Below, in pieces: positions 8,914 through 58,029 of a stretch of 64,000 nucleotides of DNA; positions within the stretch are counted from its first letter, which is position 1, and every line of letters begins with the position of its first letter. The notes under the pieces were generated by a model. That model did not search any database. It saw nothing but the letters and a program-made list of their open reading frames with translations, and was not told where the DNA came from. Source of the DNA: an uncultured Chloroflexia bacterium (GTDB lineage: Bacteria > Chloroflexota > Chloroflexia > Thermomicrobiales > CFX8); assembly GCA_963729445.1 (NCBI GenBank), contig CAVSNU010000002.1, positions 1,143,925 to 1,207,924 of the forward strand. Direction: 5' to 3'. The position numbers and the translations under genes were made by a program.

Positions 8914-8993
8914 ATCTCGCTCACCTTTCGGCGAAGTGGTGGTACTCTGGAACGTAGATAGCCAGCATCTGCAATAGCGCCGAAGGAGGGACC

Positions 8994-14275: not shown

Positions 14276-17200
14276 CTACGCGCTAACCGGAGTGACCTTG
14301 GCCTCTGCGATCTTCTCGTTCAGGGCCGAAAGGTCGGTGTTTAGCAACTCGTCGAGCTCAGCAAGGGCGGTATCAACCCGGCCGGAGAGGTCCTCGAAGA
14401 GCTCCTGCGACTGCCGGTTGGGCTTGCCTTCGGCGCTGGCGACAACACCCGCCAGGCTGGCCAGCTTGGAGTTCAGCATGACCGGGAACTTCAGGCGGTC
14501 CTTGGGTCCCTTGGCGCGGGTCTGCACGATCTGGCCCTCAACTCCGGACAGCTTCTCCTTGAAGTCCCTGGCTGCGCTCTTGAACGACTCATCGTCGATG
14601 CGCTCTTCCCAGGCTTCGATCTGTTTGGTGATGGCGCGGATCTTGCCGACGCCCTCGTGGGCGGCCGAGATCTTGTCACGGATCTGCTTCTGCAGCGCGA
14701 ACTGGGCATCGAAGTCGGCCTGGGTCGATCCCACCCGCGGGTCCCCGAGGATCTGGAACGACTCGGTCAGGGTCTTGTCGCCGACTTTCAGCTGCACCTG
14801 GTACTCGCCGGGAGCGACCTTCGGGCCACCGACAAACGTCTTACTGACCTCGTCGCCCTCAATCAGGGTTGCGTCGGCAATGCGCATGTTCCAGACGAAG
14901 CGATTCGTCCCGGCCTCGGTCTTGACCCGCTTTTCCTTCTTCTTCTCGTCCTTCTGCGAGGAGAATGACTTGATCTCGTTGCCCTCCTTGTCGAGGAAGG
15001 TCAGAGTGACCTCGCCGCCCGGCTGCTCCTTGAAGGAGTAGTGCACGATCACGCCGTCCGGTGGGTTGTTCCCGGCATCGAGAAAGAAGATCTCCGTCTC
15101 ACCATCCGGGTTGGTCGTCTGTTTGTACGTCACGTTCAGACCATTCGCGGCCTTCAGGTTCTTACCCTGAATCGCCTGGTGTCCGAAGCCCTCTTTTCCT
15201 GCGAATCGCGTCGTGTCTCTGGGCTTGAAGAGGTGCACGTCCTTGCAGAGCACCTCGTCTACCATCTGCCGCAGCGGCGAGATGTCGTCCAGGATCCAGA
15301 ACGAGCGCCCGTGGGTTGCCACGACGAGATCGCTGCCGTGGATAACGAAGTCATGGATCGGCACGAGCGGCATGTTGAGCTGCAACCGTTGCCAGTTCTC
15401 GCCGTCATCGAACGAGACATAAATCCCAGTCTCGGTACCGGCGAACAGGAGTCCGCGCCGCTGGGGATCTTCCCGAATCACCCGGGTGAAATCATCCTCG
15501 GGGATGCCGTTGACGATCGTGGTCCAGGTCTTGCCGTAGTCGCTGGTCTTGAACAGGTACGGCTTGTTGTCGTGGCTCTTGTAGCGTGTGGCGGCCACGT
15601 AGGCCGTTGCAGCGTCATGCGGCGAGGCTTCGATGATGCTGATGAGCGCCCAGTCCGGCAGCTCTGGTGGATTCACGTTTTCCCAGTTCTCACCGCCGTC
15701 GCGGGTGAGGTGGAGCAGACCATCATCCGAGCCGGCCCAGATGACGCCGCCCTCAACCGGGGACTCCGCCACCGCGAAGATCGTGCCGTAGAACTCGGCC
15801 CCGGTCATGTCCTTTGTCACGGGACCACCCGACGGACCCATCGTCTCAGGATCGGCACGCGTCAGGTCGGGACTGATCGGGTCCCAGCTCTGGCCATCGT
15901 CGTTCGAGCGAAAGAGCAGGTTGCCGGCTGTATAGAGCACACCCGGCTTGTGCGGTGAGAGCAGGGTGGGCGAGGTCCACTGGAAGCGGTATCTGGTCTC
16001 GCTCGCGGCATGCCCGGAAACATTCTCCGGCCAGACGGTGATGTTCTTCTGCAACCCGGTGGACCGATCGTAGCGGGTGAGCAAGCCCTGGTAGCTGCCG
16101 GCGAACACAATATCGGGGTTGTCGGGCCGCACCGCGATGTAGCCGCTCTCACCCCCGCCGATCTCGTCCCACTCGGTGAAATTGATCGCCACCGCGTTCG
16201 ACCGGCTGGGCAGGCTCAACGTCGTGTTGTCCTGCTGGGCACCGTACACCCGGTAGGGCGTCTGGTTGTCGGTGATGACGTGATAGAACTCGGCCGTCGG
16301 CTGGTTATAAAGCGTCGACCAGGTCTCACCGCCGTTGTAGCTGACACAGGCGCCGCCGTCGTTGCCCATCATCATGCGCTCGGGATCCGCCGGGTCAAAC
16401 CAGAGATCGTGGTTGTCAACGTGCGGTGTCGAGACGACCTGGTACGTAGTGCCACCATCAACTGATTTCCAGAGCTCGAAGTTCGGCACCCAGACCGTGT
16501 CGGGGTCCTGTGGGTCGGCGGCGATGTGCATCCAGTACCAGGGGCGCTGGATCAGGTTGGCGTCGCCGGTCAGTTTCTTCCAGGTCTCGCCATAGTCTTC
16601 AGAGCGATAGACGCCAGATTCCTCGACGTGATCCACAATTGCCCAAACGCGGCCGGCCTTCGGGGCAGCGGCAAGCCCGATCTTGCCCAGCAGTCCTTCC
16701 TTGGGAAGTCCCGGGTTGCGGGTAATCTCGGTCCAGCTGTCGCCGCCGTCCTCGGTCTTGTAGATGCTGCTGTCTGGACCACCACTCTCCAGGCTGTAGG
16801 GTGTGCGATGCGCCTCCCAGAACGCGACATAAAGGATACGCGGGTTGGTCGGGTCCATCGTGATGTCGCAGACACCGGCCTTGTTGCTGCGAAACAGCAC
16901 CTTCTCCCAGCTCTGGCCGCCGTCCTGAGTGCGGTAGACGCCGCGCTCCTCGTTCCGCCCCCAGACATGCCCGAAACCACCGACGTAGGCGATGTCCGGG
17001 TTCGTGGGGTGAATCTCGATCTCGGAGATGTTCTGGGTGTCTTCCAGCCCGCAGTGCCGCCAGCTCTTGCCGGCGTCGCTGGATTTGTAGACGCCATCAC
17101 CAAGCGAGACATTGCCGCGGATGGTCGTCTCGCCCATGCCGGCGTAGATCACGTTCGGATCAGAGGGTGAAACAGCCAGCGCTCCTACTGAAGCGCGCTT

Positions 17201-17392
17201 GAAGTAACCATCCGAGACGTTCTCCCAGATCACACCCCCGTCGGTCGTCTTCCACACTCCACCACCGGTCGAGCCAAAATAGAAGACCCTGCGGTCTGAG
17301 GGATCGCCGGCAACAGCCACGACGCGGCCGCCACGATGCGGTCCGAGGAGGCGGTACTGCATTGATTTCAGCAGATCAGGGTTTACGCTCAA
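14276..17392 (-). CDS. Asp-box (BNR) repeat / sortilin-Vps10-like double beta-propeller protein, paralog 1 (1038 aa)
   Basis: About 10 SxDxGxTW-type Asp boxes (SSDAGKSW, TQDGGQSW, TEDGGDSW, SNDDGQSW, TRDGGENW, TSDYGKTW, SFDDGENW ...). TTG start after AAGGAG. No signal peptide. The C-terminal ~170 aa look helical. Confidence 0.8.
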   Translation of the reverse strand: MSVNPDLLKSMQYRLLGPHRGGRVVAVAGDPSDRRVFYFGSTGGGVWKTTDGGVIWENVSDGYFKRASVGALAVSPSDPNVIYAGMGETTIRGNVSLGDGVYKSSDAGKSWRHCGLEDTQNISEIEIHPTNPDIAYVGGFGHVWGRNEERGVYRTQDGGQSWEKVLFRSNKAGVCDITMDPTNPRILYVAFWEAHRTPYSLESGGPDSSIYKTEDGGDSWTEITRNPGLPKEGLLGKIGLAAAPKAGRVWAIVDHVEESGVYRSEDYGETWKKLTGDANLIQRPWYWMHIAADPQDPDTVWVPNFELWKSVDGGTTYQVVSTPHVDNHDLWFDPADPERMMMGNDGGACVSYNGGETWSTLYNQPTAEFYHVITDNQTPYRVYGAQQDNTTLSLPSRSNAVAINFTEWDEIGGGESGYIAVRPDNPDIVFAGSYQGLLTRYDRSTGLQKNITVWPENVSGHAASETRYRFQWTSPTLLSPHKPGVLYTAGNLLFRSNDDGQSWDPISPDLTRADPETMGPSGGPVTKDMTGAEFYGTIFAVAESPVEGGVIWAGSDDGLLHLTRDGGENWENVNPPELPDWALISIIEASPHDAATAYVAATRYKSHDNKPYLFKTSDYGKTWTTIVNGIPEDDFTRVIREDPQRRGLLFAGTETGIYVSFDDGENWQRLQLNMPLVPIHDFVIHGSDLVVATHGRSFWILDDISPLRQMVDEVLCKDVHLFKPRDTTRFAGKEGFGHQAIQGKNLKAANGLNVTYKQTTNPDGETEIFFLDAGNNPPDGVIVHYSFKEQPGGEVTLTFLDKEGNEIKSFSSQKDEKKKEKRVKTEAGTNRFVWNMRIADATLIEGDEVSKTFVGGPKVAPGEYQVQLKVGDKTLTESFQILGDPRVGSTQADFDAQFALQKQIRDKISAAHEGVGKIRAITKQIEAWEERIDDESFKSAARDFKEKLSGVEGQIVQTRAKGPKDRLKFPVMLNSKLASLAGVVASAEGKPNRQSQELFEDLSGRVDTALAELDELLNTDLSALNEKIAEAKVTPVSA

Positions 17393-17490: not shown

Positions 17491-20400
17491 CTATCCCACC
17501 GGCGCCACACCCAGGGACGCGATCTTCGTGTTGAACTTGGCCACATCGGTGTCAATCACATGCTGCAGGGCATCGCGCTGGGCGTCAACCCGCGTCGCCA
17601 GCTGTGCAAACACCTCCAGCGATCCCTGGGTTGGGCGGGCATCGGCCTCGTCGACCATGAAGGCCAGGCTGGCCAGCTTCTCCTTGAGGCGGTTCGGGAA
17701 GCTGCGTGGATCCGAAAGCTGCACCTGAATCAGCTCGTCCTCGATCATCTTGAGCTTGGCCTTCAGCGCGATGGCCATCTCATGAATCTCAGCGTGCCGC
17801 TCGTGAGAGGCTGTCTTCTGTTCCCATTCGTCAATCTGTTTGACGATCGCCCGCAGGCGGTTGAGCGTGTCATGCAGCTCGGAGACCTTGTCTCGAATCT
17901 GTACCTTGAGGTCGAACTGCGCCTGAAGATCCTCCAGGCTTACCGACAAGCGCGGGTCAGGAGCGATCTCGAATGGCTGGGTCAACGTCTGGTTGCCAAC
18001 CGTCAATTGCACACGGTACTGTCCCGGCAACGCTCGCGGGGCCAGCGCCGGACCGATGAATGCCGAGAAGAGATCGCCCTCGGTCTCCTCCTTCAGCTTG
18101 GTTGCCGTGGGGTAGCGTAGATCCCAGACAAAGCGGTTCGCGCCAGCTTCCGCCGTGGGTTTCAGCTCGCCCTTCTCTTCGGTCAGGCTGGAGTACGAGA
18201 TAATCGGGTTGCCGTGATAGTCGAGGATGTTGATCTTCAGCTCGCCCTCGGGCTTGTCTTTCAGATAGTAATGCACGAGCACACCGTTGGGTGGATTCAC
18301 ACCGGCATCGAGGTTCGTTTGCTTACTATCCTTCTGCTTGTAGGCGTAGACCAACGGGCCGGTCATCTTGTAATTGACGAAGTCCTGCGTCGGAGTGTTG
18401 CCGTAGCCCTCGTAGATCCGGAACCGGAACGCAGGCTTGGGAGCGAACAAGTGCGCCGATTTACCCGCCAGGTCAGCCTGCATCTGCCGCAATGGGGCCA
18501 GGTCGTCCAGGGCCCAGAACGAGCGGCCATGGGTAGCGGCCACGAGCTCGTGGTCTTCCATCACCAGGTCATGGATTGGCGCGACAGGTAACCCGCCACC
18601 TTCAAGACGCTGCCAATTGCCCCCGTCATCAAACGAGACATAGACGCCGGTCTCGGTGCCGGCGAACAGCAGGCCCGGACGATCGGGGTTCTCCCGGATA
18701 ACCCGGGTGAAGTCATCCTCTGGAATCCCAGCAGTGATCTCGATCCAGGTCTGCCCGTAGTCGTTGGTCTTATACAGATAGGGCCTCGTGTCATCGTGCT
18801 TGTAGCGGGTCGCGGCGACGTAGACAGTGGCCGGGTCGTGCGGCGAGACCTCGATCACGCTGATTAAGGCCCATTCCGGCAGATCCGGTGGCGTGACATT
18901 CGTCCAGCTCTTCCCGTCGTCGCGCGAAATGTGGACCAGCCCGTCATCGGTGCCAACCCAGAACACGCCCCGTTCGTGCGGGGACTCTTTGAAGGCGAAG
19001 ATCGTGCAGTAGGCTTCAGCGCCGGTATTGTCGCGAGTGATCGGACCACCCGAGGCCCCCAGCTTGCTTGGATCGTTACGAGTAAGGTCCGGACTGATCT
19101 CTTCCCAGGTCGTACCATCGTCGGTTGACCGATGGACATGGTTGGAGGCCACGTAGAGCACATTGGGGTCGTGCGGAGAGAACTCGATCGGGAAGGTCCA
19201 CTGGAAGCGGTAGCGATGTGCGCCGGCACCCTCACCCATACCGTGCAGTTCCGGCCAGACGGTGACATTACGCTTCTGGCCGGTCTTGGGGTCATAGGCG
19301 ATGAGGCGTCCGTGCCCTAACCCGCTGCCAATTGCGCCGGCGAAGATCGTGTGGGGGGCAGTGGGTTTGATCGCGATGTAGCCACTCTCACCCCCGCCCG
19401 GCTCGAACCAGTTGCGCGGCGTGATCGCACCCTCGAACGACATGCTGGCCACCGCCAGGGCAGTGTTGTCCTGCTGCGAACCGTAGACGTTATACGGCAC
19501 CTTACCGTCGGTGGTCACATGATAGAACTGCGCCGTTGGCTGGTTATAGAGTGTCGACCACGTAATGCCCCCATTGAACGAGACACAGGCCCCGCCGTCG
19601 TTGCCCTCGATGATGCGGTTGCTGTCCTGCGGGTCGATCCAGAGACCGTGGTTGTCACCGTGCGGCGTCGGAACCTCGAAGAAAGTCTTGCCGCCGTCAA
19701 TCGACTTCTTGCAGGGCATGTTCAGGACCCAGACCGTGTCTGCATCCTGCGGATCGGCGAAGATGTGCATGTAGTACCAGGCGCGGGTGCGCAGATCGCG
19801 GTCCTCGCTGAGCCGCTGCCAGGTGTCGCCGCCGTCATCCGAGCGGAAGAGCGCGCCGTCGTCGGCTTCGACCAACGCCCAGACGCGGTCCCGCTGCGCA
19901 GGAGAGACCGCCACACCGATTTTGCCGAGCACCCCCTCGGGTAGCCCCGGGTTGCGAGTGATCTCGGTCCAGGTGTCGCCGCCGTCGGTCGTCTTCCAGA
20001 GACCGGAGTCCTCGCCGCCGCTCACCAGTTGGTGCGGATAACGCTGCGCCTGCCAGATCGAGGCGTAGATGATCCTCGGGTTGTTGGGGTCCATCGAGAT
20101 GTCGTGGCTGCCAGCCTTGTCGCTCTTGTAGAGCACCTTCTCCCAGGTTTGGCCGCCGTCCTTCGAGCGATAGACACCACGCTCCTTGTTCGGACCCCAG
20201 GCGTGGCCGAGCGCCGCGACGTAGACCAGGTCCGGGTTCCTGGGATGGATGGCGATATCGCCGATGTGACGCGTGTCCTTGAGTCCAACGTTCTTCCATG
20301 TGCGACCGCCGTCGGTTGACTTGTAGACGCCATCGCCGTGCGAGACATTGCCCCGGATCGCCGTCTCACCAGTGCCGACATAGATCACGTTCGGGTCCGA

Positions 20401-20625
20401 CTCCGACACGGCGATTGCCCCGACGGCTGATGTGTTAAAGAAACCGTCCGAGATGTTCTCCCAGTAGTCGCCACCGTCAATCGTCTTCCATACGCCACCG
20501 GCGCAGGCCCCGAAATAGAAGGTAGCCTTCTCCGTCGGATGGCCGGCGACCGCCACTACTCGTCCACCCCGATGCGGGCCAATCAGCCGCCATTCAAGTG
20601 ACTGCAGGAGGCTCGATTCAACCAT
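17491..20625 (-). CDS. Asp-box (BNR) repeat / sortilin-Vps10-like double beta-propeller protein, paralog 2 (1044 aa)
   Basis: Colinear with paralogs 1 and 3 and shares the same Asp boxes. N-terminus MVESSLLQSLEWRLIGPHRGGRVVAVAG. AGGGGA RBS. Confidence 0.8.
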   Translation of the reverse strand: MVESSLLQSLEWRLIGPHRGGRVVAVAGHPTEKATFYFGACAGGVWKTIDGGDYWENISDGFFNTSAVGAIAVSESDPNVIYVGTGETAIRGNVSHGDGVYKSTDGGRTWKNVGLKDTRHIGDIAIHPRNPDLVYVAALGHAWGPNKERGVYRSKDGGQTWEKVLYKSDKAGSHDISMDPNNPRIIYASIWQAQRYPHQLVSGGEDSGLWKTTDGGDTWTEITRNPGLPEGVLGKIGVAVSPAQRDRVWALVEADDGALFRSDDGGDTWQRLSEDRDLRTRAWYYMHIFADPQDADTVWVLNMPCKKSIDGGKTFFEVPTPHGDNHGLWIDPQDSNRIIEGNDGGACVSFNGGITWSTLYNQPTAQFYHVTTDGKVPYNVYGSQQDNTALAVASMSFEGAITPRNWFEPGGGESGYIAIKPTAPHTIFAGAIGSGLGHGRLIAYDPKTGQKRNVTVWPELHGMGEGAGAHRYRFQWTFPIEFSPHDPNVLYVASNHVHRSTDDGTTWEEISPDLTRNDPSKLGASGGPITRDNTGAEAYCTIFAFKESPHERGVFWVGTDDGLVHISRDDGKSWTNVTPPDLPEWALISVIEVSPHDPATVYVAATRYKHDDTRPYLYKTNDYGQTWIEITAGIPEDDFTRVIRENPDRPGLLFAGTETGVYVSFDDGGNWQRLEGGGLPVAPIHDLVMEDHELVAATHGRSFWALDDLAPLRQMQADLAGKSAHLFAPKPAFRFRIYEGYGNTPTQDFVNYKMTGPLVYAYKQKDSKQTNLDAGVNPPNGVLVHYYLKDKPEGELKINILDYHGNPIISYSSLTEEKGELKPTAEAGANRFVWDLRYPTATKLKEETEGDLFSAFIGPALAPRALPGQYRVQLTVGNQTLTQPFEIAPDPRLSVSLEDLQAQFDLKVQIRDKVSELHDTLNRLRAIVKQIDEWEQKTASHERHAEIHEMAIALKAKLKMIEDELIQVQLSDPRSFPNRLKEKLASLAFMVDEADARPTQGSLEVFAQLATRVDAQRDALQHVIDTDVAKFNTKIASLGVAPVG

Positions 20626-23338: not shown

Positions 23339-26300
23339 TTACGCAACCACCGGGGCGACCTTCTGCTCCTTGAGCTTGGCGTTGAAGGCCGCGACATCGG
23401 ACTTCAGAAGCTCCTGGTAGCAATTGATCTGCTCGTCAACCTGGCCGGAGAGCTTGTCGTAGACCTCGTACGACTGCTTCGTCGGGCGCATGTCGGCGTT
23501 GGCGATCAGGCCGGTCAGGGCGCCCAGCCGGTCATTGAGGCCGGAAGGGAACTGGCGTGGGCTGGCGGCTTCAGGGTTGACGAGCTCGCACTCGACGACC
23601 TTGAGCTTCTCGTCCAGCGACTTGGCCGCTTCCTTGACCGACTCGTCATCCACACGCTCGGCCCAGCTCGCGACCTGCTTGCGCACGTTGCGGATGTCAC
23701 GCGTGGTCTGATGCAGCTCGCTGAGCTTGTCACGAACCTTCAGCAGCAGGTCAAACTGCGCCTGCAGGTCGGCATGCGAAGCGTCGACCCGCGTGTCCTT
23801 CTCGATCTTGAACGTCTCCGTTAGCGTTGCGCCGTTCACCGTGAGCTGTGCCTTGTACGTGCCGGGAACTGCAACCGGCCCCACCAGGTTATCCTGCGCT
23901 CGTGGTCCGGAAGGTGCATCCTCTAGCCCCTGGGCATCCGGGTAGCGCATGTCCCAGACAAAGCGGTTCGAGCCGGCCTTCCTGGTGAGCTTGCGGCCGT
24001 TCTTGGTGCTACTGGAGAAGGTCTTGATCTCGTTGCCGCCCTCGTCCAGGATCGTCAACGTCACGTCCCCTTCGGGAGCGTCCTTCAGGTAGTAGTGGAT
24101 GACGACGCCGGACGGCGGATTCTTGCCGGCGTCCAGGAAATCAATACGGTTCTCGCCGGTCTCATCCTGCTTCTGGTAGCTGGTCACCAGCATGCCGCTT
24201 ACCCGGCCGTAGATCTTCTGGCCGTTCGAGCCCTGGTTGAAGCGCCCGAGGTTGCGGAAGCGGTATGCCTCGCCGGGTGTGAAGAGGTGGGCCGGCTTCT
24301 CGGCGACCTCGTCGCTGATCTGATACAGCGGCGTAAGGTCGTCCAGGATCCAGAACGCCCGGCCGTGGGTGGCGGCGATGAGATCCTTGTTCTTGATGTG
24401 CAGATCGTGGATCGGCGTGAGCGGCAGGTTCAACTGGAATTTCTGCCAGTTGCAGCCGTCGTCGAGCGAGACGTAGACGCCGGTCTCGGTACCCGCATAG
24501 AGGAGCCCACGCTTGTTGGGATCTTCGCGGATGGTCCGGGTAAAGTCATCCTCCGGCAACCCGTTGACGATTTCCGTCCAGCTCTTGCCGTAGTCGTTGG
24601 TTTTGTAGAGGTAGGGCTTGTTGTCATCGTGCTTGTAGCGGGTCGCGGCGACGTAGACCGTGGCCGGGTCGTGCGGCGAGACCTCAATCACGCTGATGAG
24701 CGCCCACTCCGGCAGGGCTGCGGGCGTGACGTTGTCCCAGTTCTTGCCGCCATCGCGGCTGATGTGGATCAAACCGTCGTCGCTGCCGGCCCAGAAGACA
24801 CCCTGCTCGTGCGGAGACTCGTGGAAGGCGAAGATCGTGCAGTAGGCCTCTGCGCCGGTGTTGTCGTTGGTGATCGGGCCGCCCGAGGGACCCAGCTTAC
24901 TCGGGTCGTTGCGGGTGAGATCGGGGCTGATGACCTCCCAGCTCATCCCCTCGTCGGTCGACTTGTGGACGTGGTTCGAGGTTACGTAGAGCGTGTTTGG
25001 ATCGAAGGGGGAGAGCTCGATCGGGAAGGTCCACTGGAAGCGGTACTTCAACGCCTCGGCGCCGCGCCCCATGCCGGTCACTTCCGGCCACACATTGATC
25101 GCGCGCTCTTCAAAGGTCTCGTGGTCGTAGCGCAGGAGGCGTCCATTGCCGGCGCCGCTGCCGATCGCGCCACCGTACACAATATTGGGGTTGTCCGGGC
25201 GGATCGCGATGTAGCCACTCTCGCCGCCGCCGGGCTGGTACCACTCCTGGGTCGTGATCGCGCCATTGGCCGAGCGGCTAGGCAGGGCCAGCGCGGTGTT
25301 GTCTTGCTGCGAGCCATAGACACGGTACGGGTGCCGGTTGTCGGCAATGGCGTGATAGAACTGCGCGGTCGGCTGGTTGTAGATGCTCGACCAGGTTTCG
25401 GCGCCGTTCAAGGTGACGTTCGCGCCGCCGTCGTTGCCCTCGATCATGCGGTTGCTGTCCTGCGGGTCGATCCAGAGATCCTGGTTGTCACCGTGCGGCG
25501 TCGGGATGGCGGAGAACGTCTTGCCGCCGTCGATCGACTTCCAGCACTGCAAGTTCAGCACCCAGACGGTGTCGGCGTCGGATGGATCGGCGTAGATGTG
25601 CATGTAGTACCAGGCGCGCCGGCGGAGGTCGCCGTTGTCCGAGACCATCTGCCAGGTGTCGCCACCATCGTCTGAGCGGAAGAGCGCCCCGTCCTCAGCC
25701 TCGACCAGCGCCCAGATACGGCCAGACTTGGCCGGCGAGATGGCAACGCCAATCTTGCCGAGCACACCCTTGGGGAGTCCCGGGTTGCGGGTAATGTCCT
25801 CCCAGGTGTCGCCGCCGTCGGTCGAGCGCCAGATGCTGGAATCGTCACCACCGCTCCGCAGCGCGTGCGGGTAGCGCTGGGCATCCCACAGCGCCGCGAC
25901 GAGAATGCGTGGGTTGTTGGGATCCATGGTGAGGTCGATCGCACCGGCCTTGTCGCTCTTGTAGAGGACCTTCTCCCAGCTCTGGCCGCCGTCGGTCGTA
26001 CGGAAAACGCCGCGCTCTTCGTTCGTGCCCCAGATATGGCCGAGCGCCGAGACGTAGACGAGGTCCGGGTTGTTGGGGTGAATCCGTACCCGGCTAATGT
26101 GGCGGGTGTCCTTCAGACCGACGTTTTTCCAGGTCTTGCCGCCGTCGGTGGACTTGTAGACGCCGTCACCGTGTGAGACATTTCCGCGGATACTCGTCTC
26201 ACCCATGCCGGCGTAAATAACATTTGGATCCGACTCGGAAACAGCCAGAGCGCCGACTGCCGACGTGTTGAAATAGCCGTCGGAAATGTTCTCCCAGTAG

Positions 26301-26470
26301 ACGCCGGCATCGGTGGTTTTCCAGACACCGCCACCAACCGCACCGAAGTAGAAGGTGGCCTTCGCGGTCGGATGCCCTGCGACTGCGACGACTCTACCAC
26401 CACGAAATGGACCGATCAGACGCCATTCAAGTGACTGAAATAGCCCGGGATTTATGGTCCCGTTCGACAT
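23339..26470 (-). CDS. Asp-box (BNR) repeat / sortilin-Vps10-like double beta-propeller protein, paralog 3 (about 1043 aa)
   Basis: Colinear with paralog 2, with long identical runs. The start is set at ATG 26470 after AGAGGAGGGG; the ORF extends to 26506. Confidence 0.8.
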   Translation of the reverse strand: MSNGTINPGLFQSLEWRLIGPFRGGRVVAVAGHPTAKATFYFGAVGGGVWKTTDAGVYWENISDGYFNTSAVGALAVSESDPNVIYAGMGETSIRGNVSHGDGVYKSTDGGKTWKNVGLKDTRHISRVRIHPNNPDLVYVSALGHIWGTNEERGVFRTTDGGQSWEKVLYKSDKAGAIDLTMDPNNPRILVAALWDAQRYPHALRSGGDDSSIWRSTDGGDTWEDITRNPGLPKGVLGKIGVAISPAKSGRIWALVEAEDGALFRSDDGGDTWQMVSDNGDLRRRAWYYMHIYADPSDADTVWVLNLQCWKSIDGGKTFSAIPTPHGDNQDLWIDPQDSNRMIEGNDGGANVTLNGAETWSSIYNQPTAQFYHAIADNRHPYRVYGSQQDNTALALPSRSANGAITTQEWYQPGGGESGYIAIRPDNPNIVYGGAIGSGAGNGRLLRYDHETFEERAINVWPEVTGMGRGAEALKYRFQWTFPIELSPFDPNTLYVTSNHVHKSTDEGMSWEVISPDLTRNDPSKLGPSGGPITNDNTGAEAYCTIFAFHESPHEQGVFWAGSDDGLIHISRDGGKNWDNVTPAALPEWALISVIEVSPHDPATVYVAATRYKHDDNKPYLYKTNDYGKSWTEIVNGLPEDDFTRTIREDPNKRGLLYAGTETGVYVSLDDGCNWQKFQLNLPLTPIHDLHIKNKDLIAATHGRAFWILDDLTPLYQISDEVAEKPAHLFTPGEAYRFRNLGRFNQGSNGQKIYGRVSGMLVTSYQKQDETGENRIDFLDAGKNPPSGVVIHYYLKDAPEGDVTLTILDEGGNEIKTFSSSTKNGRKLTRKAGSNRFVWDMRYPDAQGLEDAPSGPRAQDNLVGPVAVPGTYKAQLTVNGATLTETFKIEKDTRVDASHADLQAQFDLLLKVRDKLSELHQTTRDIRNVRKQVASWAERVDDESVKEAAKSLDEKLKVVECELVNPEAASPRQFPSGLNDRLGALTGLIANADMRPTKQSYEVYDKLSGQVDEQINCYQELLKSDVAAFNAKLKEQKVAPVVA

Positions 26471-26571
26471 ATTGCCCCTCCTCTGGATGCCTCCGTTGTC
26501 CGTCATACGCGAGGGCTAATGTCGCATAGATCAACGAAGGGCACAAGAGAGGGAGCGGGTAGGGGACCGGG

Positions 26572-37905: not shown

Positions 37906-38637
37906 ATGTCTATTGCCACGGTGCTCACCGAGATCATCGACCGAATCGTCCGGGAATTCCAGCCAGAAAAGATCATCCGCTTTGGTCCCCAGGCGCGCGG
38001 CAATGCGTTCCCGTACAGCGATGTCGAGCTGCTGGTCGTCATGCCGGAGGGCACGGACCGGCACGCGACGGCGGTCGCTATTCTCAAGCTCCTGGGTGAC
38101 CTCCCGGTAGCGAAAACCGTGATCGTGACGACGCCCGACGAGATCAGTCGCCGGGGCCAGATCGTGGGCAGTGCGCTCCGGCCTGCACTCCGCGAGGGCA
38201 GAGTGCTGTATGACCGAGAGAGTGAGGCGACGCACGAGCTCTGGGACTGGTTGCGTTTCGCGCGGGAGGATCTGCACGCGGCGACGCTCGTCGTGCAGCG
38301 TTCTGATGTTGCTCCACGCCAGGCTTGCTGGTTGGCGCAACAGTCGGCCGAAAAGGCGATCAAGTCAATTTTCGTCTTCTTGCAGCTCGATTTTCCGCAC
38401 GTCCACGATCTCACCCTGCTGCTCACCCTGGTTCCGGACGATTGGCAACTCAAGCACGATCCTCCCGACCTCTCGCAGCTAGCCAACTGGGCGGTGAATA
38501 CGCGCTACCCCGCGCCAAATGAACCAACCACCGAGGACGCCATCGTCGCCGTGCAAACCGCCAGCACCGTCTTCGAGACGGTCACCGCAGACCTGCTTCA
38601 ACGGGGCTACTCCCTTGATGAGAATGAGGATATTTAG
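37906..38637 (+). CDS. Fused minimal nucleotidyltransferase (MNT) plus HEPN domain protein
   Basis: N-terminal NTase motif [21 protein letters not shown]-terminal HEPN-like [32 protein letters not shown]. Single 243-aa ORF. Confidence 0.7.
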
Positions 38638-39377
38638 GCATAAACGAGTTCTTGTATCTCGTGAGAGTCAACGTGAGGAAACTCGTCCCACGTGCGGCCC
38701 TCGAGTAGGCGCCCGGATTTCTTTTTGTTCTGCCCACCCCACTGTTTGAAGAAGAACGGTACTTTCGACTCCAGGCACTGGTCACGGATATCAGTGACCC
38801 ATTCGGGGTCGATTGGCCGCGCCTTTGGACCAGACTCACCTCCAACGATGACCCAGTGAATACCCCTAAGGTCAAGATTGGGGAGGGGTCCAAGGAGGGG
38901 TTCTAGTGACAGGAATCGCGTCGCTGCATCCGCCAACCGGAGATGGTCAATTCGACTTACAACTCGCAGATCCTCGACGCTCGTACCCATCCAGATATTC
39001 TCCGGCCAAGAAAGCGCATCACTCATCTGTGCAACACGTTCTGGCCGCTTCGTGAGGACCTGAAATTGGTGTTGTGGGCAGCGAACCATCACATCGAACA
39101 CTCGATGGATGAACTCGTCCGGAACTTCAGGATGAAACAGATCACTCATTGAGTTGACGAAGACCTTGCGAGGTTTCTTCCACTTGAACGGCACCTCTAG
39201 CATGTGCTCGTGGAGCGTGATCTTAAAGCCATTCCGGTAGTTCGGGCTACCCATCGCTTGCAGCCGCTTCGCCATTCGATCGGCGTAGCAATACTTGCAA
39301 CCGGCACTCAATTTTGTGCAGCCGGTCAGTGGATTCCATGTGGCTTCAGTCCATTCTATGCCTGAATTATTGGCCAT
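38634..39377 (-). CDS. DUF5131 / phage Gp37-Gp68 family three-Cys-motif protein
   Basis: [36 protein letters not shown] (C-x6-C-x2-C). ...[14 protein letters not shown]...FFFKQWGG is typical of PF07505. GGGAG RBS lies in the 16-nt gap after tcmP. Confidence 0.8.
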
Positions 39378-39393
39378 TTTCCTAATCTCCCTA

Positions 39394-40551
39394 TTATGGA
39401 AATGACACCATTACTGGGTCACCAAAGGTCGGACTCCCATTACGCTTCTTTCGGCGTTGGGCGGGCGGGTTTGCAACGATCCGATGCTCCATCTCTAGTT
39501 GAGATAGAGCTTCCTTGTAATTCCGCTCGATATAGTTTGTTCCAACGTTATGCGAGTCGTATATCTCTCGCATTGACAACGTTTGTCCTCGAAATACTTT
39601 CAAGAGCTCCACCTTGAGCTCATCAAGAGGCCGCTCAAGCTCCAGTCTTGACTGCCGCGCTCGTGACGGATCGAATTCAAAACTGGGGACGCCTTGTGGA
39701 GAACTCGAGCTAAACTCACTCATGATGTCCTTCATTATGGCGTATCCGCGCACGTGCTTAGTGACCAAGATCAAATGATGGCTCGTCCGACTACCGCCGT
39801 CTGCTTTGAAGCAGAACGGCAATACATATCGACCACCGACCTCTTGGAGAGCCGCAGGCAACTCGTTAAGTATCTCCTGCTCCCGTTGTGCTTGTTTCAG
39901 TGCTGAAACTCGACTGCGTAAATCAGCGGCCCGTTGGCTGCCAAATATTTCGTTCATCCTAGCTACGACGCTGGGATTTGAGAGGCCCGGGTTTATCCGA
40001 TTGTAATTGAAAAAGAAGATGCAATCGCATCCCCAATCACGAATTGCGGCTCCCAACAACTCAAGAGACAGGCCTCTATAGCCCCATGGATCGATGAAAA
40101 ATAACGTTGGTGCGAACCGTGTCTCCTGAAGAAAAGCCACCACTTCAGTACTTACATCATATGAAGTAAATTGAGGCTCATACTTGAGGGTATCGATCCC
40201 TTCAATGGCTAACACCGCTTCGCGGAGTTGCTTGATATACCGTGGATTACCGTCGTTGAACCATGTCACGAGTTGTTCAGCAAGCGGCGGTGAAGAGATC
40301 GCATGCCTAAGTATCCAAAGAGGGGTAGACTCCGCACCATCGTCATAGGATCCCTGGCCCGAAAACAAATCAATATAGGAGACCTGTCTGTCGGACCCCA
40401 TGGCGCGAGGTAACATAATCTTCGACCAAGCACTGAAGTATTTGGCGACGATCCTTGTCTTTACGAGTGATGATTCCCGCTGCTCCTGAAAAAACCTCTC
40501 ACCTCTAGGTATCGACAATGGCGCCTCCTCAGATCGATCATAACAGAACAT
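39394..40551 (-). CDS. tcmP: Three-Cys-motif partner protein TcmP
   Basis: N-terminus [16 protein letters not shown]...[24 protein letters not shown] and FFIDPWGY are typical of TIGR04474-type proteins. It lies immediately upstream of the DUF5131 gene. GC is about 48-50% in hand-counted lines. Confidence 0.7.
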
Positions 40552-40671
40552 ATGTTCGTATCAATAACCTCAAACACCGTCGGTAGTCAAGGCAACCTAG
40601 TCTGAGTGGCCAGGTGACAATATCGAGAGCTAAAGAGCTACGAATGGCCAGACGTGAAACTCTCGGTCGCT

Positions 40672-41595
40672 CTACTCAAACGTCACCGACCACTCGCCAA
40701 CCGCCGTGACCTCGACCAGCGAGGTGTCGGACGGGATGATGACGCGGCCATCGTAGGGGTCGGTGGTGTTGACGGCCAGGTTGGAGCGACTACCGTAGGT
40801 GACGACGGCGAAGTGACGGCTGTCGGCGTTGCCGGTGATCACGGCTGTATCCATCTCGCCACGAACAAGGAAAACTTCGTCACCTGAGCCAGTGACCGCA
40901 CCGGGCGCATCAGCAACACGAGCTGAGAGCAATGGCCGAACCTCGATGTACCACTCGCCCTTCGACGTTACTTCCAAGCGTGTCGTTGTTTCACCTTCCC
41001 GAAAATCGAGCGCGACGATTCCTTCATAAACATCGGTGGTGTTCACCAACAAACCAGTTGACTCACCGGCGTCGTCATAGGCAGTAACAGCAAAGTGGCG
41101 TGCCTCTGCGTTACCACGCACATAGACCAAGACAGCATCGTCGGCTGCACCAGGCTTTTGTATTGACACAACATCATCGCCGAATCCCGAATAGGCTACC
41201 GGCACTGGTGCAGGTGTCGGAGTCGGTGGAACCGGCGTAGCCGTGGGCTCCGGTGTTGGGCTGGGAGTAGCGGTGGGCTCTGGCGTGGCTGTTGGCTCGG
41301 GAGTAGCTGTCGGTTCAGGTGTCGACGTTGGTTCGGGAGTCGCAGTTGGTTCTTGCGTAGCCGGCGGCTGCGGAGTGTTCGTGGGCGCAGTCGTGGCATC
41401 CGTCTCGGACGTAGTCGCAACGGTCGGGTTCGAGCCTTCGGCGGCTGTGTTCTCGTCATCTGTTTCGGCCCCACAGGCCACAAGCATCAGTGCCAGTACG
41501 GTCATGACGAGTAACACGCCATAGCGCGCAGCGCCCGTACCAGAAGTGAGCCATTGCAGCTTCCACATCAGTGATTCCTCCATTGATGAGACCAT
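40672..41595 (-). CDS. Hypothetical lipoprotein with (E)PTATP repeat linker and duplicated C-terminal beta-rich domain
   Basis: LALMLVACGAETDD lipobox. EPTATPEPTSTPEPTATPEPTATPEPTATPSPTPEPTATP linker. Two related ~85-aa modules (..NAEARHFAVTAYDDAG..LLVNTTDVYEGIV.. and ..NADSRHFAVVTYGSRS.NLAVNTTDPYDGRV..). Confidence 0.6.
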   Translation of the reverse strand: MVSSMEESLMWKLQWLTSGTGAARYGVLLVMTVLALMLVACGAETDDENTAAEGSNPTVATTSETDATTAPTNTPQPPATQEPTATPEPTSTPEPTATPEPTATPEPTATPSPTPEPTATPVPPTPTPAPVPVAYSGFGDDVVSIQKPGAADDAVLVYVRGNAEARHFAVTAYDDAGESTGLLVNTTDVYEGIVALDFREGETTTRLEVTSKGEWYIEVRPLLSARVADAPGAVTGSGDEVFLVRGEMDTAVITGNADSRHFAVVTYGSRSNLAVNTTDPYDGRVIIPSDTSLVEVTAVGEWSVTFE

Positions 41596-41758
41596 GCTCC
41601 TATATCGTCAGGTGCATCGTAAACCACATATTTGTTCAAGGACACAGGACTAATCGCCCACTTGTTACTCAAACGTCAGCGATCACTCACCAACCGCATC
41701 AGTGATTCCTTCATCGTGACACCATGCTTCGTCCCCCGGCAAGGGCAGACGAAACGAA

Positions 41759-41794
41759 CAGCGTCTCCCCCTTGTACCGGAGGGGAAGACGCTG
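41759..41794 (-). terminator. Probable intrinsic terminator of the DUF4097 gene
   Basis: On the minus strand, CAGCGTCTTCCCC..loop..GGGGGAGACGCTG (one bulge) is followed by TTCGTTTCGTC. It lies 28 nt after the stop. Confidence 0.45.
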
Positions 41795-41821
41795 CTTCTC
41801 TTTTACTGGGTGGTGACTGGT

Positions 41822-42619
41822 CTAGCTCGCGCGTCCTGCTTCCCGGATCGTCATGCCGCCGCTGATTGTCGCGACACGCAGGTGGAGCTTCACCCTGGAC
41901 GCGTCCCAGGCGTCATTGACGTAACCTCGGGCACCTCCGCGCGAGGATTCTCCGGTTTGCAGGTCGAGCCGGCCAGAGATAGTTGCGGTTTGCACCGCTA
42001 CGCCGACATTTGTGGGGATCGTCACGATCACGCCACCGGATACGGAGTCGATCTTCGCGTTCAGGTCGCGCAGCCAGTGGCCGCCAAGATCGACCTCCAG
42101 CGCGCCACTGGCACTCTTCGTTTCCAGACTGGCGAGCGAGCGGTAACGGCCGTTCAAGCGCAGGATGACGTCTCCACTGGCGGAATTGACGGTGACACGG
42201 CTGGCATAGGGCTGGTCTCCGCCGAGTCCGGCGGAGACGTCACCGCTGGCGGAGTCCAGATCCAGTGACGCGACGGTGACGCTATCCAGTGCAAGGGTGG
42301 CGTTCGCACTGGCAACGTTCACCTGAAGATCGAGGGGGATACGGTCATTCAGGCGGATGGTCCACGCATTTTCGGTCGCGTGGACGTTGTTGGTGGATGC
42401 CTGCTTGATGCTGAGCGCGCCTAGACGACCGGAAGCGTCATGTTCCACCAGGGGTTCAAGCTCTTCGTCGTAAATGAAATCAGCGTCCATCAGGCCAGTT
42501 GCGCCACCAGAGATGTGCAGCTCTCCGACCGCCATGCTGATTTCCACCCGGGCGGCTGCGATCCCGTCAGCCGGAACCGTCTCAGAGCGTTGCATCGTGT
42601 CGGGGTCCTTCCCTGCCAT
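41822..42619 (-). CDS. DUF4097 / toast-rack beta-strand repeat protein (LiaG-like putative adhesin)
   Basis: Repeated SASGDV / SASGAL / SVSGGV strands. The start is uncertain (42634, 42619 or 42595); every option overlaps the end of the upstream gene. Confidence 0.6.
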   Translation of the reverse strand: MAGKDPDTMQRSETVPADGIAAARVEISMAVGELHISGGATGLMDADFIYDEELEPLVEHDASGRLGALSIKQASTNNVHATENAWTIRLNDRIPLDLQVNVASANATLALDSVTVASLDLDSASGDVSAGLGGDQPYASRVTVNSASGDVILRLNGRYRSLASLETKSASGALEVDLGGHWLRDLNAKIDSVSGGVIVTIPTNVGVAVQTATISGRLDLQTGESSRGGARGYVNDAWDASRVKLHLRVATISGGMTIREAGRAS

Positions 42620-54115: not shown

Positions 54116-55963
54116 ATGTTGAACGCTACCGACCACTGGAGCACTGAGCCGGGCCGCTGGGACGCGGAGTTGGCGCCCGAGGCGTACGCGACCATCCCGA
54201 GAATCAGCGTCCCGCGCCTCTCTCCTGACCGTAAGCTGATCGCTTTTATCCGCAGCTACGACGGGCGCGCCGATGTCTGGGTCACGTCGCTCGACGGACC
54301 GGCCCTCCAGCTAACCGACCGCGTAACTCCACAGGGTGCTGACCCCGGCCAGCGCCAGGCATTCCCGCTCGCCTGGACGCCAGACAGCCAGACAGTTGTC
54401 TACGCTTCGACACAGGAGGGAAAGCTCTGGAGCGTCCCGGCGGCCGGAGGAGCGTCACAACCCATCGACGAGGGCCCCGGCAATCATCACTCGCCTGCTG
54501 TCTCGCCGGACGGGCAATCCGTTGCCTATGTTGCCGAGCGCGGTGAGACGATCGACATCTTCATCTCGTCACTCGACGGTACAAAAACGCGTCAGATCAG
54601 TGATCCGGCCGACGACGGCTATGTCAGCAACCCGCGCTGGTCACCGGACGGCGCGTCGCTGCTCTACGTGCGCTGGCCGCACTACGACATGCCCTGGGAC
54701 GAGATCGCCATCATCGTTGCCGACGTCAAGACTGGTGAGCGGCAGACCATCGCCGGCGGCAACCGCGTCGCAAACAACTGGCCAGACTGGTCGCCGGACG
54801 GAACGTCGATCGTCTTCCTCTCGGATCGCGACGGTGAGCACCCCAACCTGTGGCGCACGCGGCCCGACGGTTGTAATGCTGAGTGCCTGGTGAACGAACC
54901 TTCCGACCACCGCTCGCCGGCCTGGTCACCGGATGGATCGAAGATCGCCTATACTCGCAGCGCCAGTTGCGAGAGTCAGATCTGGGTCTGGGAAAATGGC
55001 GAGACACGCCAGATCACGCACGAGCCCGGTGTCTACGGCGACCTGGCCTGGGTTGACGACGAGCACCTCCTGTGTACCTTCGAGTCGCCGCTCGTGCCGC
55101 CCGATCTCTACGTCGTCGGTCTGGACGGGGCACGCCGGCAGCTCACCTTCAGTGCCACCGGCGGTGTCATTGGCGGGAACCTGACGTTGCCTGAGATCAT
55201 TTGCTGGACCTCGCGCGACGGGCTGACGATCGAGGGCATGCTCTTCACTCCCGAAGAAGAGCGAGCCGGTCGCCATCCACTGATTGTCCACATTCACGGC
55301 GGTCCGGTCGGTCAGGCAATGACCAACTGGACGCCCTGGATCCAATACCTTGTCCAGCGCGGCTACGTCGTTCTGGTGCCAAACTACCGCGGGTCGAAGG
55401 GCTATGGCCGCAGCTTCATGGAGGCGCTCTATGGAGACTGGGGCGGGGGCGATCTGGATGACTACATTACCGGAGCCGAGGCAGTCATCGCGCGTGGTCT
55501 GGTTGACGCCGGCAGAGTGGTGGCGACCGGTGGTTCCGCCGGCGGCTACAGCACACTGATCTGCATGACGAAGGCGCCGGAGTTCTTCAAGGCCGGCATT
55601 GCCCGCTACGGGATTGCCGACCTGTCCACCTTCCACGAGCGCACCTGGGTCTTCGAGCGTCACTACATCGCCAAGCTGATGGGTGGCACAGGTGGACAGC
55701 TGGCTGAGCTCTACCGCGACCGCTCGCCGATCAACTTCGTTGACAACGTCAAGAACCCGGTCCTGATCCTTCAAGGGGAATCAGACATCGTCTGCCACCC
55801 GTCCGAGATGAACAAGATGACGGCTGCCCTCGAGAAGGCCGGCAAGCACGTCGAATACCACACCTATCCCGGCGAGGGTCACGGCTGGAAGAAGGTCTCC
55901 ACCATCCTCGACGATGCCTACAAGAGCGACGATTTCCTGCTGCGGATGGTCTTGAACCGATAG
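54116..55963 (+). CDS. S9 family peptidase (prolyl oligopeptidase/acylaminoacyl peptidase-like) with TolB-like propeller
   Basis: Repeated WSPDG propeller blades. Catalytic triad context GGSAGGY, GESDIVC and GEGHGW. CAGGAG RBS. Confidence 0.85.
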   Translation: MLNATDHWSTEPGRWDAELAPEAYATIPRISVPRLSPDRKLIAFIRSYDGRADVWVTSLDGPALQLTDRVTPQGADPGQRQAFPLAWTPDSQTVVYASTQEGKLWSVPAAGGASQPIDEGPGNHHSPAVSPDGQSVAYVAERGETIDIFISSLDGTKTRQISDPADDGYVSNPRWSPDGASLLYVRWPHYDMPWDEIAIIVADVKTGERQTIAGGNRVANNWPDWSPDGTSIVFLSDRDGEHPNLWRTRPDGCNAECLVNEPSDHRSPAWSPDGSKIAYTRSASCESQIWVWENGETRQITHEPGVYGDLAWVDDEHLLCTFESPLVPPDLYVVGLDGARRQLTFSATGGVIGGNLTLPEIICWTSRDGLTIEGMLFTPEEERAGRHPLIVHIHGGPVGQAMTNWTPWIQYLVQRGYVVLVPNYRGSKGYGRSFMEALYGDWGGGDLDDYITGAEAVIARGLVDAGRVVATGGSAGGYSTLICMTKAPEFFKAGIARYGIADLSTFHERTWVFERHYIAKLMGGTGGQLAELYRDRSPINFVDNVKNPVLILQGESDIVCHPSEMNKMTAALEKAGKHVEYHTYPGEGHGWKKVSTILDDAYKSDDFLLRMVLNR

Positions 55964-55997: not shown

Positions 55998-56360
55998 ATG
56001 GCCGTGAAGGCGGACTTGATCCAATATGATGATGACCGGTTCGTTCACCTGGATTGGTATGTGGATCAGCCGCGCGTTCGCGCAACGGATGACTATCCAT
56101 CTCCAGGTTACGTTTCAGATGCCCGGATCTTCTTCTATTGGGACGATGAGAAGATTGAGGACCTCGGCGAGCATGAGCTCCTGGGTGTTGAGATCGTCGA
56201 CATCGGTATGTTGAGCGACAGGGATATCAGCGCAATCGAGAATCTGAACCCGCCGAGAATCGACCTTCCCGAAGAAGGCCTCTTCGATGCGCCGGTGGCT
56301 GACGCTCTACGGAAGGCGCGTGCAAAGCGGTTGGCGCACGCTAGTCACGTGCCCGCGTAG
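55998..56360 (+). CDS. Hypothetical protein (120 aa)
   Basis: GGAAGGAG RBS precedes the ATG and the gene has its own terminator. I recognise no motif. Confidence 0.5.
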   Translation: MAVKADLIQYDDDRFVHLDWYVDQPRVRATDDYPSPGYVSDARIFFYWDDEKIEDLGEHELLGVEIVDIGMLSDRDISAIENLNPPRIDLPEEGLFDAPVADALRKARAKRLAHASHVPA

Positions 56361-56389
56361 CGACGAGACCAACTGCTGAGGATTTCTAA

Positions 56390-56420
56390 GAGACGGCTCA
56401 GAGCCGTCTCCCTTTCTGTT
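56390..56420 (+). terminator. Rho-independent terminator
   Basis: GAGACGGCT cag AGCCGTCTC followed by CCTTTCTGTT. Confidence 0.7.
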
Positions 56421-56442
56421 CGGAGAAAACCCATCGTTTCGT

Positions 56443-56767
56443 CTATCCCCATGGGTCCGGTTATCCCCGTATATATTCTTTTTAAGTAAAAGAAATAGCA
56501 GTACGTAGTAGGCACTGTGGATTGTGCGGATAACCCTTGCCTCAGGCTTGCAGATGCCGAAAACAGGGCGCACAAGAGGTGGGATGACTTCTCCACATCT
56601 CCACCGGAGGGAATGTTGACAAATTTGTCACAGCTGCATTGTCCGGAATCCATCAACATTGGCAGGCCGCGTTCGCCTGCGCTTATCCAGATCGAGATGG
56701 GTGTACGTACACATGCCTGTCCCCATTACCCTCATGTTATCCACATTCCCTGGCGTAGTTATCCACA
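56443..56767. other. DnaA-box cluster with AT-rich tract (oriC-like region)
   Basis: Perfect TTATCCACA at 56737-56745 and 56759-56767. One-mismatch boxes are TTATCCAGA (56683-56691), TTCTCCACA (56589-56597) and TTATCCGCA (minus strand, 56525-56533). Two-mismatch boxes lie at 56443-56451, 56461-56469 and 56516-56524 (minus strand). The tract 56470-56499 is about 83% AT. Confidence 0.6.
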
Positions 56768-56823
56768 ATAAGGACGAATACGTGTCGAGGGTGCCCTATC
56801 TGTGACGCGCTGTCACCGCTCGC

Positions 56824-58029
56824 CTAGCCCGTGACGGGCAGCGCTTCCGGCTCTGCCTGTGGTGAGAGCTGGGCTCTGAGGAGGTACACGATCAAGGGGA
56901 GCGAGAGCGCGACCGCGACCACCAGCGGCAGGGCGGGCCAGATGTCGTAGAGCAATCCGGCAATGATCGGGGCAAGGGTGAAGCCCGCCACAATCAGAAT
57001 CTCACTCATCGTAAAGACGTGGTGATGGTTGCGGTCCGGCGTCACGTCGCCGAGCGCGGCTGAGAACAGAGAGAGCGACGAGAAGAGGCCACCGCGCAGG
57101 ATGAACCCCACGATAATGACGGGAAGCACGGTTGGTTGCAGGAAGAGCAGATAGCCAATACTCACCCCCGCTACCGCGATACCGGCTCCACGCAGCGGCG
57201 CGCTGGCGAAGCGCTGGCTGCGCACGACCAGCAAGCCAAACAAGATCGAGCCCACTGCCGAAAAGGACGTCAGCAGCGCGATCAGGTCGTCAGGGTGACC
57301 CCCAACCTGCCGTAGGTAGTTCGGAATGAACTGTGCCCCGAGACCGATGGCGAAGACCGTCAGGAATTTGAGCAAGAGCACCGAGCGCACCTGCGGAACG
57401 GCCAGCGCGGTCCGATAACTCTCTCCGGCCATCCCCTCGCGGCCCTCTTCAACCGGGAGGTTCTCGGGTTTGATACGCGAGAAGATCAGGATGGAGATGA
57501 ACGAAAACACCGCCGAGACGACGAACGGCGAGCGCAGACCGAACAGCGCGATGACCCCGCTGGAGATGAGCGGGGCGATCAGGAACGCCAGTGAGGGCCC
57601 AATCGTTACCACAAGGGCGAAGGCTCGCGCTCGCTCTTTACCGGCGTTCGTGGCGACGTGGGAAAGCACGATCGGGAACGCCATCGAGCCAGCCGCGATG
57701 CCAACCATTGCCGGCAGCAGCCATGGCCAGCTCGGGGCGAAGGCCGCCGTCCCGATTCCGACCAGGGCGATCGCGCGCGAAAGGATGAGCAGCGTTTTCG
57801 CGCCGAATTTCTTGGCAAGTGCTGCTGTGGGTAAGAGCACGAAGAACCGGATGACACCGCTGAAGCCCAGCAGCACACCGATCAACGTGATCGGCGCGCC
57901 GAGCTCCTCCATGAACAACGTCCAGATTGGCATGTACGCGGCAAACGAGCCTTCGAGGAAGACCATGCCCCAGAAGGCCAGACCGTTCTCGCGCCCCAAG
58001 CCAAAGTACCACCGTGGACCTTCGTACAC
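56824..58029 (-). CDS. MFS transporter
   Basis: 401-aa ORF with about 12 TM segments and the typical two-halves organisation. Confidence 0.75.
   Translation of the reverse strand: MYEGPRWYFGLGRENGLAFWGMVFLEGSFAAYMPIWTLFMEELGAPITLIGVLLGFSGVIRFFVLLPTAALAKKFGAKTLLILSRAIALVGIGTAAFAPSWPWLLPAMVGIAAGSMAFPIVLSHVATNAGKERARAFALVVTIGPSLAFLIAPLISSGVIALFGLRSPFVVSAVFSFISILIFSRIKPENLPVEEGREGMAGESYRTALAVPQVRSVLLLKFLTVFAIGLGAQFIPNYLRQVGGHPDDLIALLTSFSAVGSILFGLLVVRSQRFASAPLRGAGIAVAGVSIGYLLFLQPTVLPVIIVGFILRGGLFSSLSLFSAALGDVTPDRNHHHVFTMSEILIVAGFTLAPIIAGLLYDIWPALPLVVAVALSLPLIVYLLRAQLSPQAEPEALPVTG

Follow-up and report, generated by a model that had tools for sequence, protein, structure and literature searches.

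A basal unwinding system (BUS) in bacterial replication origins has been defined by a rule that asks for a DnaA box carrying no more than 2 mismatches, to which a second tandem box with up to 4 mismatches may be added, a first trio lying 16 bp or less from the first box (most commonly 13) and, as in Bacillus subtilis genetics, at least three consecutive 3′-NAN-5′ DnaA-trios (PMC8287927). Table S1 of that study writes the trio strand 3′ to 5′, and in this format the B. subtilis entry reads AATAGGTGT TTAGGTGT CCGG GATGATAAT..., that for Thermus thermophilus AATAGGTGT AAAGGTGT CCGG GATGATGAT and that for Deinococcus radiodurans AAAAGGTGT CATAGGTGT CCGG GATGATGAC... (PMC8287927 Table S1). Here a 64,000-nt stretch of contig CAVSNU010000002.1 from an uncultured Chloroflexia bacterium, referred to as the window, was analyzed, and within it a roughly 370-bp element, conserved and non-coding, is, as far as sequence comparison can tell, very probably the DnaA-dependent chromosomal origin (oriC) of uncultured Thermomicrobiales (Chloroflexota), placed away from dnaA and dnaN. 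The origins of B. subtilis, T. thermophilus and D. radiodurans adjoin dnaA–dnaN; unlike these, the element has no replication gene in the 64-kb window, and outside the boxes the three origins have no sequence similarity to the rest of the element. In kind the element is ordinary, with an invariant palindrome block as an additional feature.

When the window was written in the format of Table S1, it read 3′-AATAGGCGT GTTAGGTGT CACG GAT GAT GCA TGA CGA TAA AGA AAA..., running straight into an AT-rich tract. The parts of this putative unwinding module are listed below; here and in later lists, the six homologues are the window copy and five relatives, labeled L008, L029, L031, L033 and L036.

56470–56499, unstranded: AT-rich tract TATATATTCTTTTTAAGTAAAAGAAATAGC, candidate DNA unwinding element (DUE), 83% AT.
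56506–56511, plus strand: two DnaA-trios, TAGTAG on this strand, equal to 3′-GAT GAT-5′; AGTAG is invariant in 6/6 homologues.
56512–56515, unstranded: GCAC, a 4-nt G/C-rich spacer that separates trios from tandem boxes, of the same length and position as the CCGG spacer of the Table S1 entries.
56516–56533, minus strand: tandem DnaA boxes, TTATCCGCA (56525–56533, 1 mismatch) then CAATCCACA (56516–56524, 2 mismatches); TGTGGATnGnGnGGATAAC is invariant in 6/6 homologues.

With 1 mismatch in TTATCCGCA and 2 in CAATCCACA, both boxes fall within the limits of the published rule, and the 9-nt second box together with the 4-nt GCAC gives the distance of 13. The same format was applied to the relatives: L008, L029, L033 and L036 read 3′-AATAGGGGT G(A/T)TAGGTGT GGGA GAT GAG/GAC AAT/TAT-5′, with three consecutive NAN trios, and L031 reads AATAGGTGC GATAGGTGT AGGA GAT GAT TGC..., with the same layout and, like the window, two trios. 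The first trio, 3′-GAT-5′, was invariant in all six homologues. Shared with the modules of B. subtilis, T. thermophilus and D. radiodurans are tandem head-to-tail boxes with the closer match upstream, a G/C-rich spacer of 4 nt, 3′-GAT-5′ as the first trio, an AT-rich tract, and the strand and orientation of the whole (PMC6669920, PMC8287927). The 9-nt box period of D. radiodurans is the same as in the element, whereas B. subtilis has many more trios than the two of the window or the three found in four of its five relatives. The left end of the element appears to have the BUS layout, since orientation, strand, spacer length and first trio agree with the published entries, and its closest layout relatives are, on this comparison, the Deinococcus–Thermus and Bacillus modules. 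A 16-nt insertion beside the trios is specific to the window.

An initial annotation, made from the letters of the window, had described at this place an oriC-like DnaA-box cluster with an AT-rich tract, in a 463-bp spacer between convergent genes, and all of its coordinates checked out. The spacer (56361–56823) lies between a 120-aa open reading frame (ORF; plus strand, 55998–56360) and an MFS transporter gene (minus strand, 56824–58029, with its stop at 56824), both of which have their 3′ ends at the spacer. Besides the tandem pair, the following boxes with at most 1 mismatch were found in it.

56589–56605, plus strand: 1-mismatch box TTCTCCACA (56589–56597), then head-to-tail TCTCCACC; TT..CC.CATCTCC.C is invariant in the six-way alignment.
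56683–56691, plus strand: 1-mismatch box TTATCCAGA, aligned with GTTATCGAC in relatives; TTAT is invariant.
56737–56745, plus strand: perfect DnaA box TTATCCACA; the same column in relatives is TTGTCCACA or TTATCCACA.
56759–56767, plus strand: perfect DnaA box TTATCCACA; invariant in 6/6 homologues.

The two perfect boxes, whose starts lie 22 bp apart on the plus strand, are the only copies of TTATCCACA in the 64-kb window, for which dinucleotide shuffles gave an expectation of 0.11, in line with the earlier estimate of fewer than one by chance. The five boxes with at most 1 mismatch lie inside a 350-bp stretch, with a weighted score of 9; 200 first-order Markov simulations never went beyond 2 boxes and a score of 4. 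The perfect and 1-mismatch boxes of the initial annotation were recovered, as were its three 2-mismatch boxes at 56443 (plus), 56461 (plus) and 56516 (minus); it had missed two more, at 56614 (minus) and 56726 (plus). The AT-rich tract is the sole 30-mer with at least 25 A/T in the 64-kb window, and the aligned position is also AT-rich in all relatives (64–71% over 45 nt); its annotated composition of about 83% AT stood, and the genome GC content of about 63% given with it was replaced by 60.6% for the window. A window-specific 18-nt tandem duplication (CCCATCGTTTCGTCTATC / CCCATGGGTCCGGTTATC, 56430–56465) was observed to produce the 2-mismatch box at 56461, which is not conserved. Outside the spacer, 16 TTATCCACA-like 9-mers (at most 1 mismatch) were counted in the window, where base-permuted 9-mers average about 5.3 (top 2.8%); this excess may represent mild origin-proximal DnaA-box enrichment or a codon effect.

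Homologues of the element were discovered by scanning 30 S9-peptidase loci for boxes, which gave clusters in L008 and L029 just downstream of the peptidase, and by scanning metagenomes with a signature pattern, which gave L033, L036 and L031. The other five metagenome pattern matches were attributed to chance, being four mutually similar coding stretches and one AT-rich non-coding stretch, and viral contigs gave no match to two signature patterns of the element. The element and its relatives are as follows.

56435–56806 of the window, plus strand: conserved non-coding element, candidate oriC core (nhmmer with a profile of three homologues, E = 5e-93).
L008, 2464–2804: full-length nhmmer match.
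L029 (contig CAVXOL010000001.1, 688 kb), 13479–13820: full-length nhmmer match.
L033, 3325–3667: full-length nhmmer match.
L036, 4719–5055: full-length nhmmer match.
L031, 93–406, minus strand: more divergent, covering profile positions 25–308 of 344.

The five homologues, all from Thermomicrobiales/Chloroflexia metagenome-assembled genomes (MAGs) and metagenomes, matched at E = 1e-39 to 1e-108 and are about 340–370 bp long. The motifs, together with their order, spacing and orientation, are conserved in six lineages, and coding, RNA and iteron signals are absent. In the six-way alignment of the window with L008, L029, L033, L036 and L031, the invariant blocks from left to right were AGTAG; TGTGGATnGnGnGGATAAC; TT..CC.CATCTCC; TGAC...CAC; TTAT; GGGTGTACGTACACA; TCCCCATT; GTTnTCCACA; and TTATCCACA, and the strongest DnaA boxes were among them. 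The boxes are in register across the homologues, and spacings of 64 nt (56525 box to 56589 box) and 147–148 nt were kept in the window, L008 and L029. Between the invariant blocks the sequence is variable, and its indels are not multiples of three. No open reading frame runs through the element, and several stops in each of the six frames of all six copies ruled out a coding element. A structured non-coding RNA was ruled out by the lack of any Rfam match at gathering score in the whole window and by RNAalifold on the six-way alignment, whose helices only pair inverted DnaA boxes and whose covariation term of +2.23 is a penalty; a tRNA scan of the window also found none. There are no iterons in the element, the DnaA boxes being its sole repeats. 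Because coding, RNA-structure and other repeat signals were all lacking and sequence varies freely between the invariant blocks, the element is, on this evidence, conserved protein-binding DNA dominated by DnaA boxes.

In the mechanism proposed for this origin, DnaA–ATP would first bind the strong boxes at 56737 and 56759, after which DnaA would fill the weaker boxes across about 250 bp (56683, 56589–56605 and degenerate sites) and would also occupy the oppositely oriented tandem pair at 56516–56533. From this pair, a DnaA filament would cross the 4-nt GC spacer onto the plus-strand 3′-GAT-5′ trios (56506–56511) and reach the AT-rich tract at 56470–56499, which it would melt, permitting helicase loading. 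DnaA binding and unwinding are thus predicted from the motifs, as is the standing of the element as the sole origin of the primary replicon. Origins not linked to dnaA are known in E. coli and others. E. coli oriC (gidA/mnmG–mioC) likewise does not lie beside dnaA and likewise has an edge DUE flanked by a DnaA-oligomerization region of about 250 bp, with strong and weak boxes in both orientations; in contrast to the element, it has different neighbors, its DUE uses 13-mers and its BUS prediction is weak. Neither IHF nor Fis sites were identified in the element, and GATC clustering, at which no search was aimed, was not seen in it.

Within the order, the closest available comparison is with Thermomicrobium roseum, in which dnaN, dnaA, gyrA, gyrB, spo0J and gidA are dispersed and the origin was placed by skew, base 1 being set at the skew switch near dnaX (PMC2615216). 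An orphan oriC is to be expected in the order because replication genes are dispersed in T. roseum. In the DoriC entry for this species (ORI92730242), near chromosome position 1,777,700, one box GAAAGGTGT is accompanied by weak trios and a spacer of 9 nt (PMC8287927 Table S1), and the position of the entry disagrees with that of the skew-defined origin (PMC8287927 Table S1 versus PMC2615216). The dispersal of these genes leaves origins in the order to be predicted from skew and boxes alone; compared with that of the DoriC entry, the unwinding module of the element is far more canonical, which may make the element a better guide to origins in the group. Existing predictions for Thermomicrobiales are weak or mutually contradictory. 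Apart from the genome paper of T. roseum and the DoriC-based table, the literature yielded nothing specific to Thermomicrobiales/Chloroflexi origins, and no experimental characterization of Chloroflexota origins, notably those of Thermomicrobiales, was found there. For one clade of uncultured Thermomicrobiales, the element would provide an origin model that is clear-cut and conserved, made up of boxes, trios and DUE, which could help in orienting MAG contigs and in positioning the origin when growth rates are estimated (peak-to-trough). It would also lend further support to the extension of the BUS layout to Chloroflexota and supply a concrete candidate site for an origin-binding factor; the general view of bacterial initiation is unchanged. 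At the record junction of the T. roseum megaplasmid NC_011961 (L040 plus L039), neither a DnaA-box cluster nor a canonical parS was found within ±6 kb, and a large AAA ATPase gene adjoins the base-1 region of this record.

The initial annotation had proposed a replication origin not adjacent to dnaA, and this proposal is supported by the conserved element, by its BUS layout and by Pfam scans that covered nearly every long ORF in the window, along with genes next to the homologues, and turned up neither dnaA nor dnaN. Gene orientation, which it had described as mostly minus to the left and plus to the right, was borne out among Pfam-supported genes, 23/32 being on the minus strand to the left of the element and 4/5 on the plus strand to the right. 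Several observations weigh against an origin at this locus, however. In the window copy the run of consecutive NAN trios stops at two, the third triplet reading 3′-GCA-5′, whereas the published rule, taken strictly, asks for at least three. The GC-skew analysis that had been recommended as a check, carried out over short flanks, gave the right direction, with GC skew rising and AT skew falling from the left to the right flank in 4/4 loci with both flanks, but the change is small over a right flank of 7–8 kb. Cumulative G–C in the window flattens over the 7 kb to the right with no upturn, and per-gene skews at third codon positions (GC3/AT3) do not switch cleanly. The S9 peptidase gene and the 120-aa ORF just to the left point into the element and would thus meet a leftward fork head-on. 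Linkage to the peptidase is not general, 25/30 S9-peptidase loci being without the element, among them the pair nearest to the window, L001 and L003. Moreover, the data comprise the window and the flanks of the homologues, so a stronger box cluster may exist elsewhere, for example beside dnaA, and the putative assignment to the primary replicon is drawn from a 64-kb window.

The explanation that survives next best, and which had also been raised at the outset, is a DnaA-box cluster that is not an origin, acting in titration or reactivation as do datA, DARS and the B. subtilis clusters, with the true oriC elsewhere, e.g. near dnaA. Such a locus would account for conserved boxes with no replication gene nearby, for the two clean trios in the window and for the weak skew switch. 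Titration and reactivation sites need boxes only. E. coli datA and DARS1-2 and the DnaA-box clusters of B. subtilis are likewise away from dnaA, but to our knowledge they are without a trio and DUE unwinding module, whereas the element carries one that is conserved. All six lineages retain its tandem pair, 4-nt spacer, 3′-GAT-5′ trio and AT-rich tract, oriented as in characterized unwinding modules; no other 30-mer of the window is as AT-rich as this tract, and about 340 bp are conserved as a single unit. Because a titration or reactivation locus needs no trio and DUE module, this explanation is less likely than an origin, and we regard it as very unlikely.

The initial annotation had further noted two parS sites 48–52 kb away and, as another alternative, the origin of a second replicon. 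Both sites were confirmed as perfect matches in a motif scan of the window, in which 0.09 would be expected, and they count in favor of an origin on the primary chromosome.

4590–4605: perfect parS TGTTTCACGTGAAACA.
8898–8913: perfect parS TGTTTCACGTGAAACA.

A secondary-replicon origin, serving a second chromosome, chromid or megaplasmid in a Thermomicrobiales bacterium, would be in keeping with the multi-replicon genomes of T. roseum and Sphaerobacter thermophilus and with the gene content of the window, which is of accessory type and includes no core replication genes. It fits poorly, however, with the parS sequence, which is the canonical chromosomal one, and with the neighborhood of the element, where there are no iterons and where the scanned ORFs, both of the window and next to the homologues, gave no rep-like domain. 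A blastn search against PLSDB, which includes the T. roseum megaplasmid, gave no match, the skew-defined origin region of that megaplasmid is without a DnaA-box cluster, and in S. thermophilus the secondary replicons cluster with ParA/ParB and Rep families of plasmid-like type. The S9 peptidase likewise has no close plasmid homologue (tblastn, all <32% identity). A secondary-replicon origin is thus very improbable, and a chromosomal oriC is preferred. Weakest of all, and barely credible, is a DnaA-controlled transcriptional regulatory region or a chance cluster: DnaA boxes do serve as operators in many promoters and the right gene in relatives diverges from the element, but the spacer of the window receives the 3′ ends of its two flanking genes and gave no sigma-70-like promoter, in agreement with the earlier remark that promoters do not explain the spacer, the right neighbor differs in every lineage, and chance is excluded by the simulations and by conservation.

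The invariant blocks of the element include a motif that is not a DnaA box, and the element has an inverted repeat at its right edge.

56699–56727, unstranded: non-box motif GGGTGTACGTACACA (core palindrome TGTACGTACA), 6 nt, then TCCCCATT; invariant in 6/6 homologues.
56802–56816, unstranded: inverted repeat GTGAC-N5-GTCAC at the right edge, with GTTGACAnnCTGTCAAC at the aligned position in L033, L036, L008 and L029.

The core TGTACGTACA is a perfect 10-bp palindrome that includes two GTAC; it has one exact copy in the window and, among Thermomicrobiales loci, occurs only within the element. The GGGTGTACGTACACA-N6-TCCCCATT block is more conserved than most DnaA boxes, and it is tentatively put forward, as a possibility that we would not yet favor, as the site of a lineage-specific origin regulator controlling initiation in these Chloroflexota. 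Its binder may be a DNA-binding protein that acts as a dimer, or else a methylation and sequestration system directed at GTAC; such a regulator would be analogous to, but unrelated to, CtrA, SeqA or Spo0A. The arms of the right-edge inverted repeat differ between lineages yet stay complementary, and the repeat could be an operator or a hairpin.

The left side of the element is bounded by the terminator that had been annotated for the upstream gene, which was found as a hairpin with a T-rich tail; it is the left boundary and lies outside the origin.

56390–56420, plus strand: intrinsic terminator of the upstream 120-aa ORF (hairpin 56390–56410, 9-bp stem, 6 G-C pairs, T-rich tail CCTTTCTGTT).

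The S9 peptidase gene lies at 54116–55963, and relatives of its product at 55–78% identity were found only in Thermomicrobiales/Chloroflexia MAGs. An S9 peptidase, the one gene of the surroundings that is shared, is the left neighbor in 5/6 homologues, L031 having a DUF3352 protein instead, and the right neighbor varies between an MFS transporter (window), LuxR-family STAND regulators (L008 and L029) and an ECF sigma factor (L036). In the peptidase tree, L008, L036, L033 and L029 form one clade, and the window falls in its sister clade with L001 and L003, which appear to have lost the peptidase–element adjacency. The presence of element-bearing loci in two sister clades fits vertical inheritance with one-sided rearrangement. 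Rearrangement of this kind is common at origins. Downstream of the S9 peptidase of L001, where other lineages carry the element, a unit of roughly 21 nt (CTGTCATCCCGAGAGTTCAAA) is repeated in tandem at 11940–12035.

Further features were noted elsewhere in the window. Xanthine dehydrogenase/CoxL-type molybdopterin genes with partial domains occupy 6752–10253 in three ORFs (6752–8266, 8305–8961 and 8994–10253), a three-way split that may reflect frameshifts or pseudogenes, and the parS site at 8898 lies inside the middle fragment. Three paralogous Sortilin/BNR-repeat proteins of about 1040 aa are encoded on the minus strand at 14276–17392, 17491–20625 and 23339–26506. A low-GC island at 38000–42000 (0.52–0.55 versus 0.61) carries HEPN, DUF5131 and GMT-wHTH genes and is probably a horizontally acquired defense or mobile island. 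A RES-domain protein encoded at 11828–12382 is possibly the toxin of a RES-Xre toxin–antitoxin pair.

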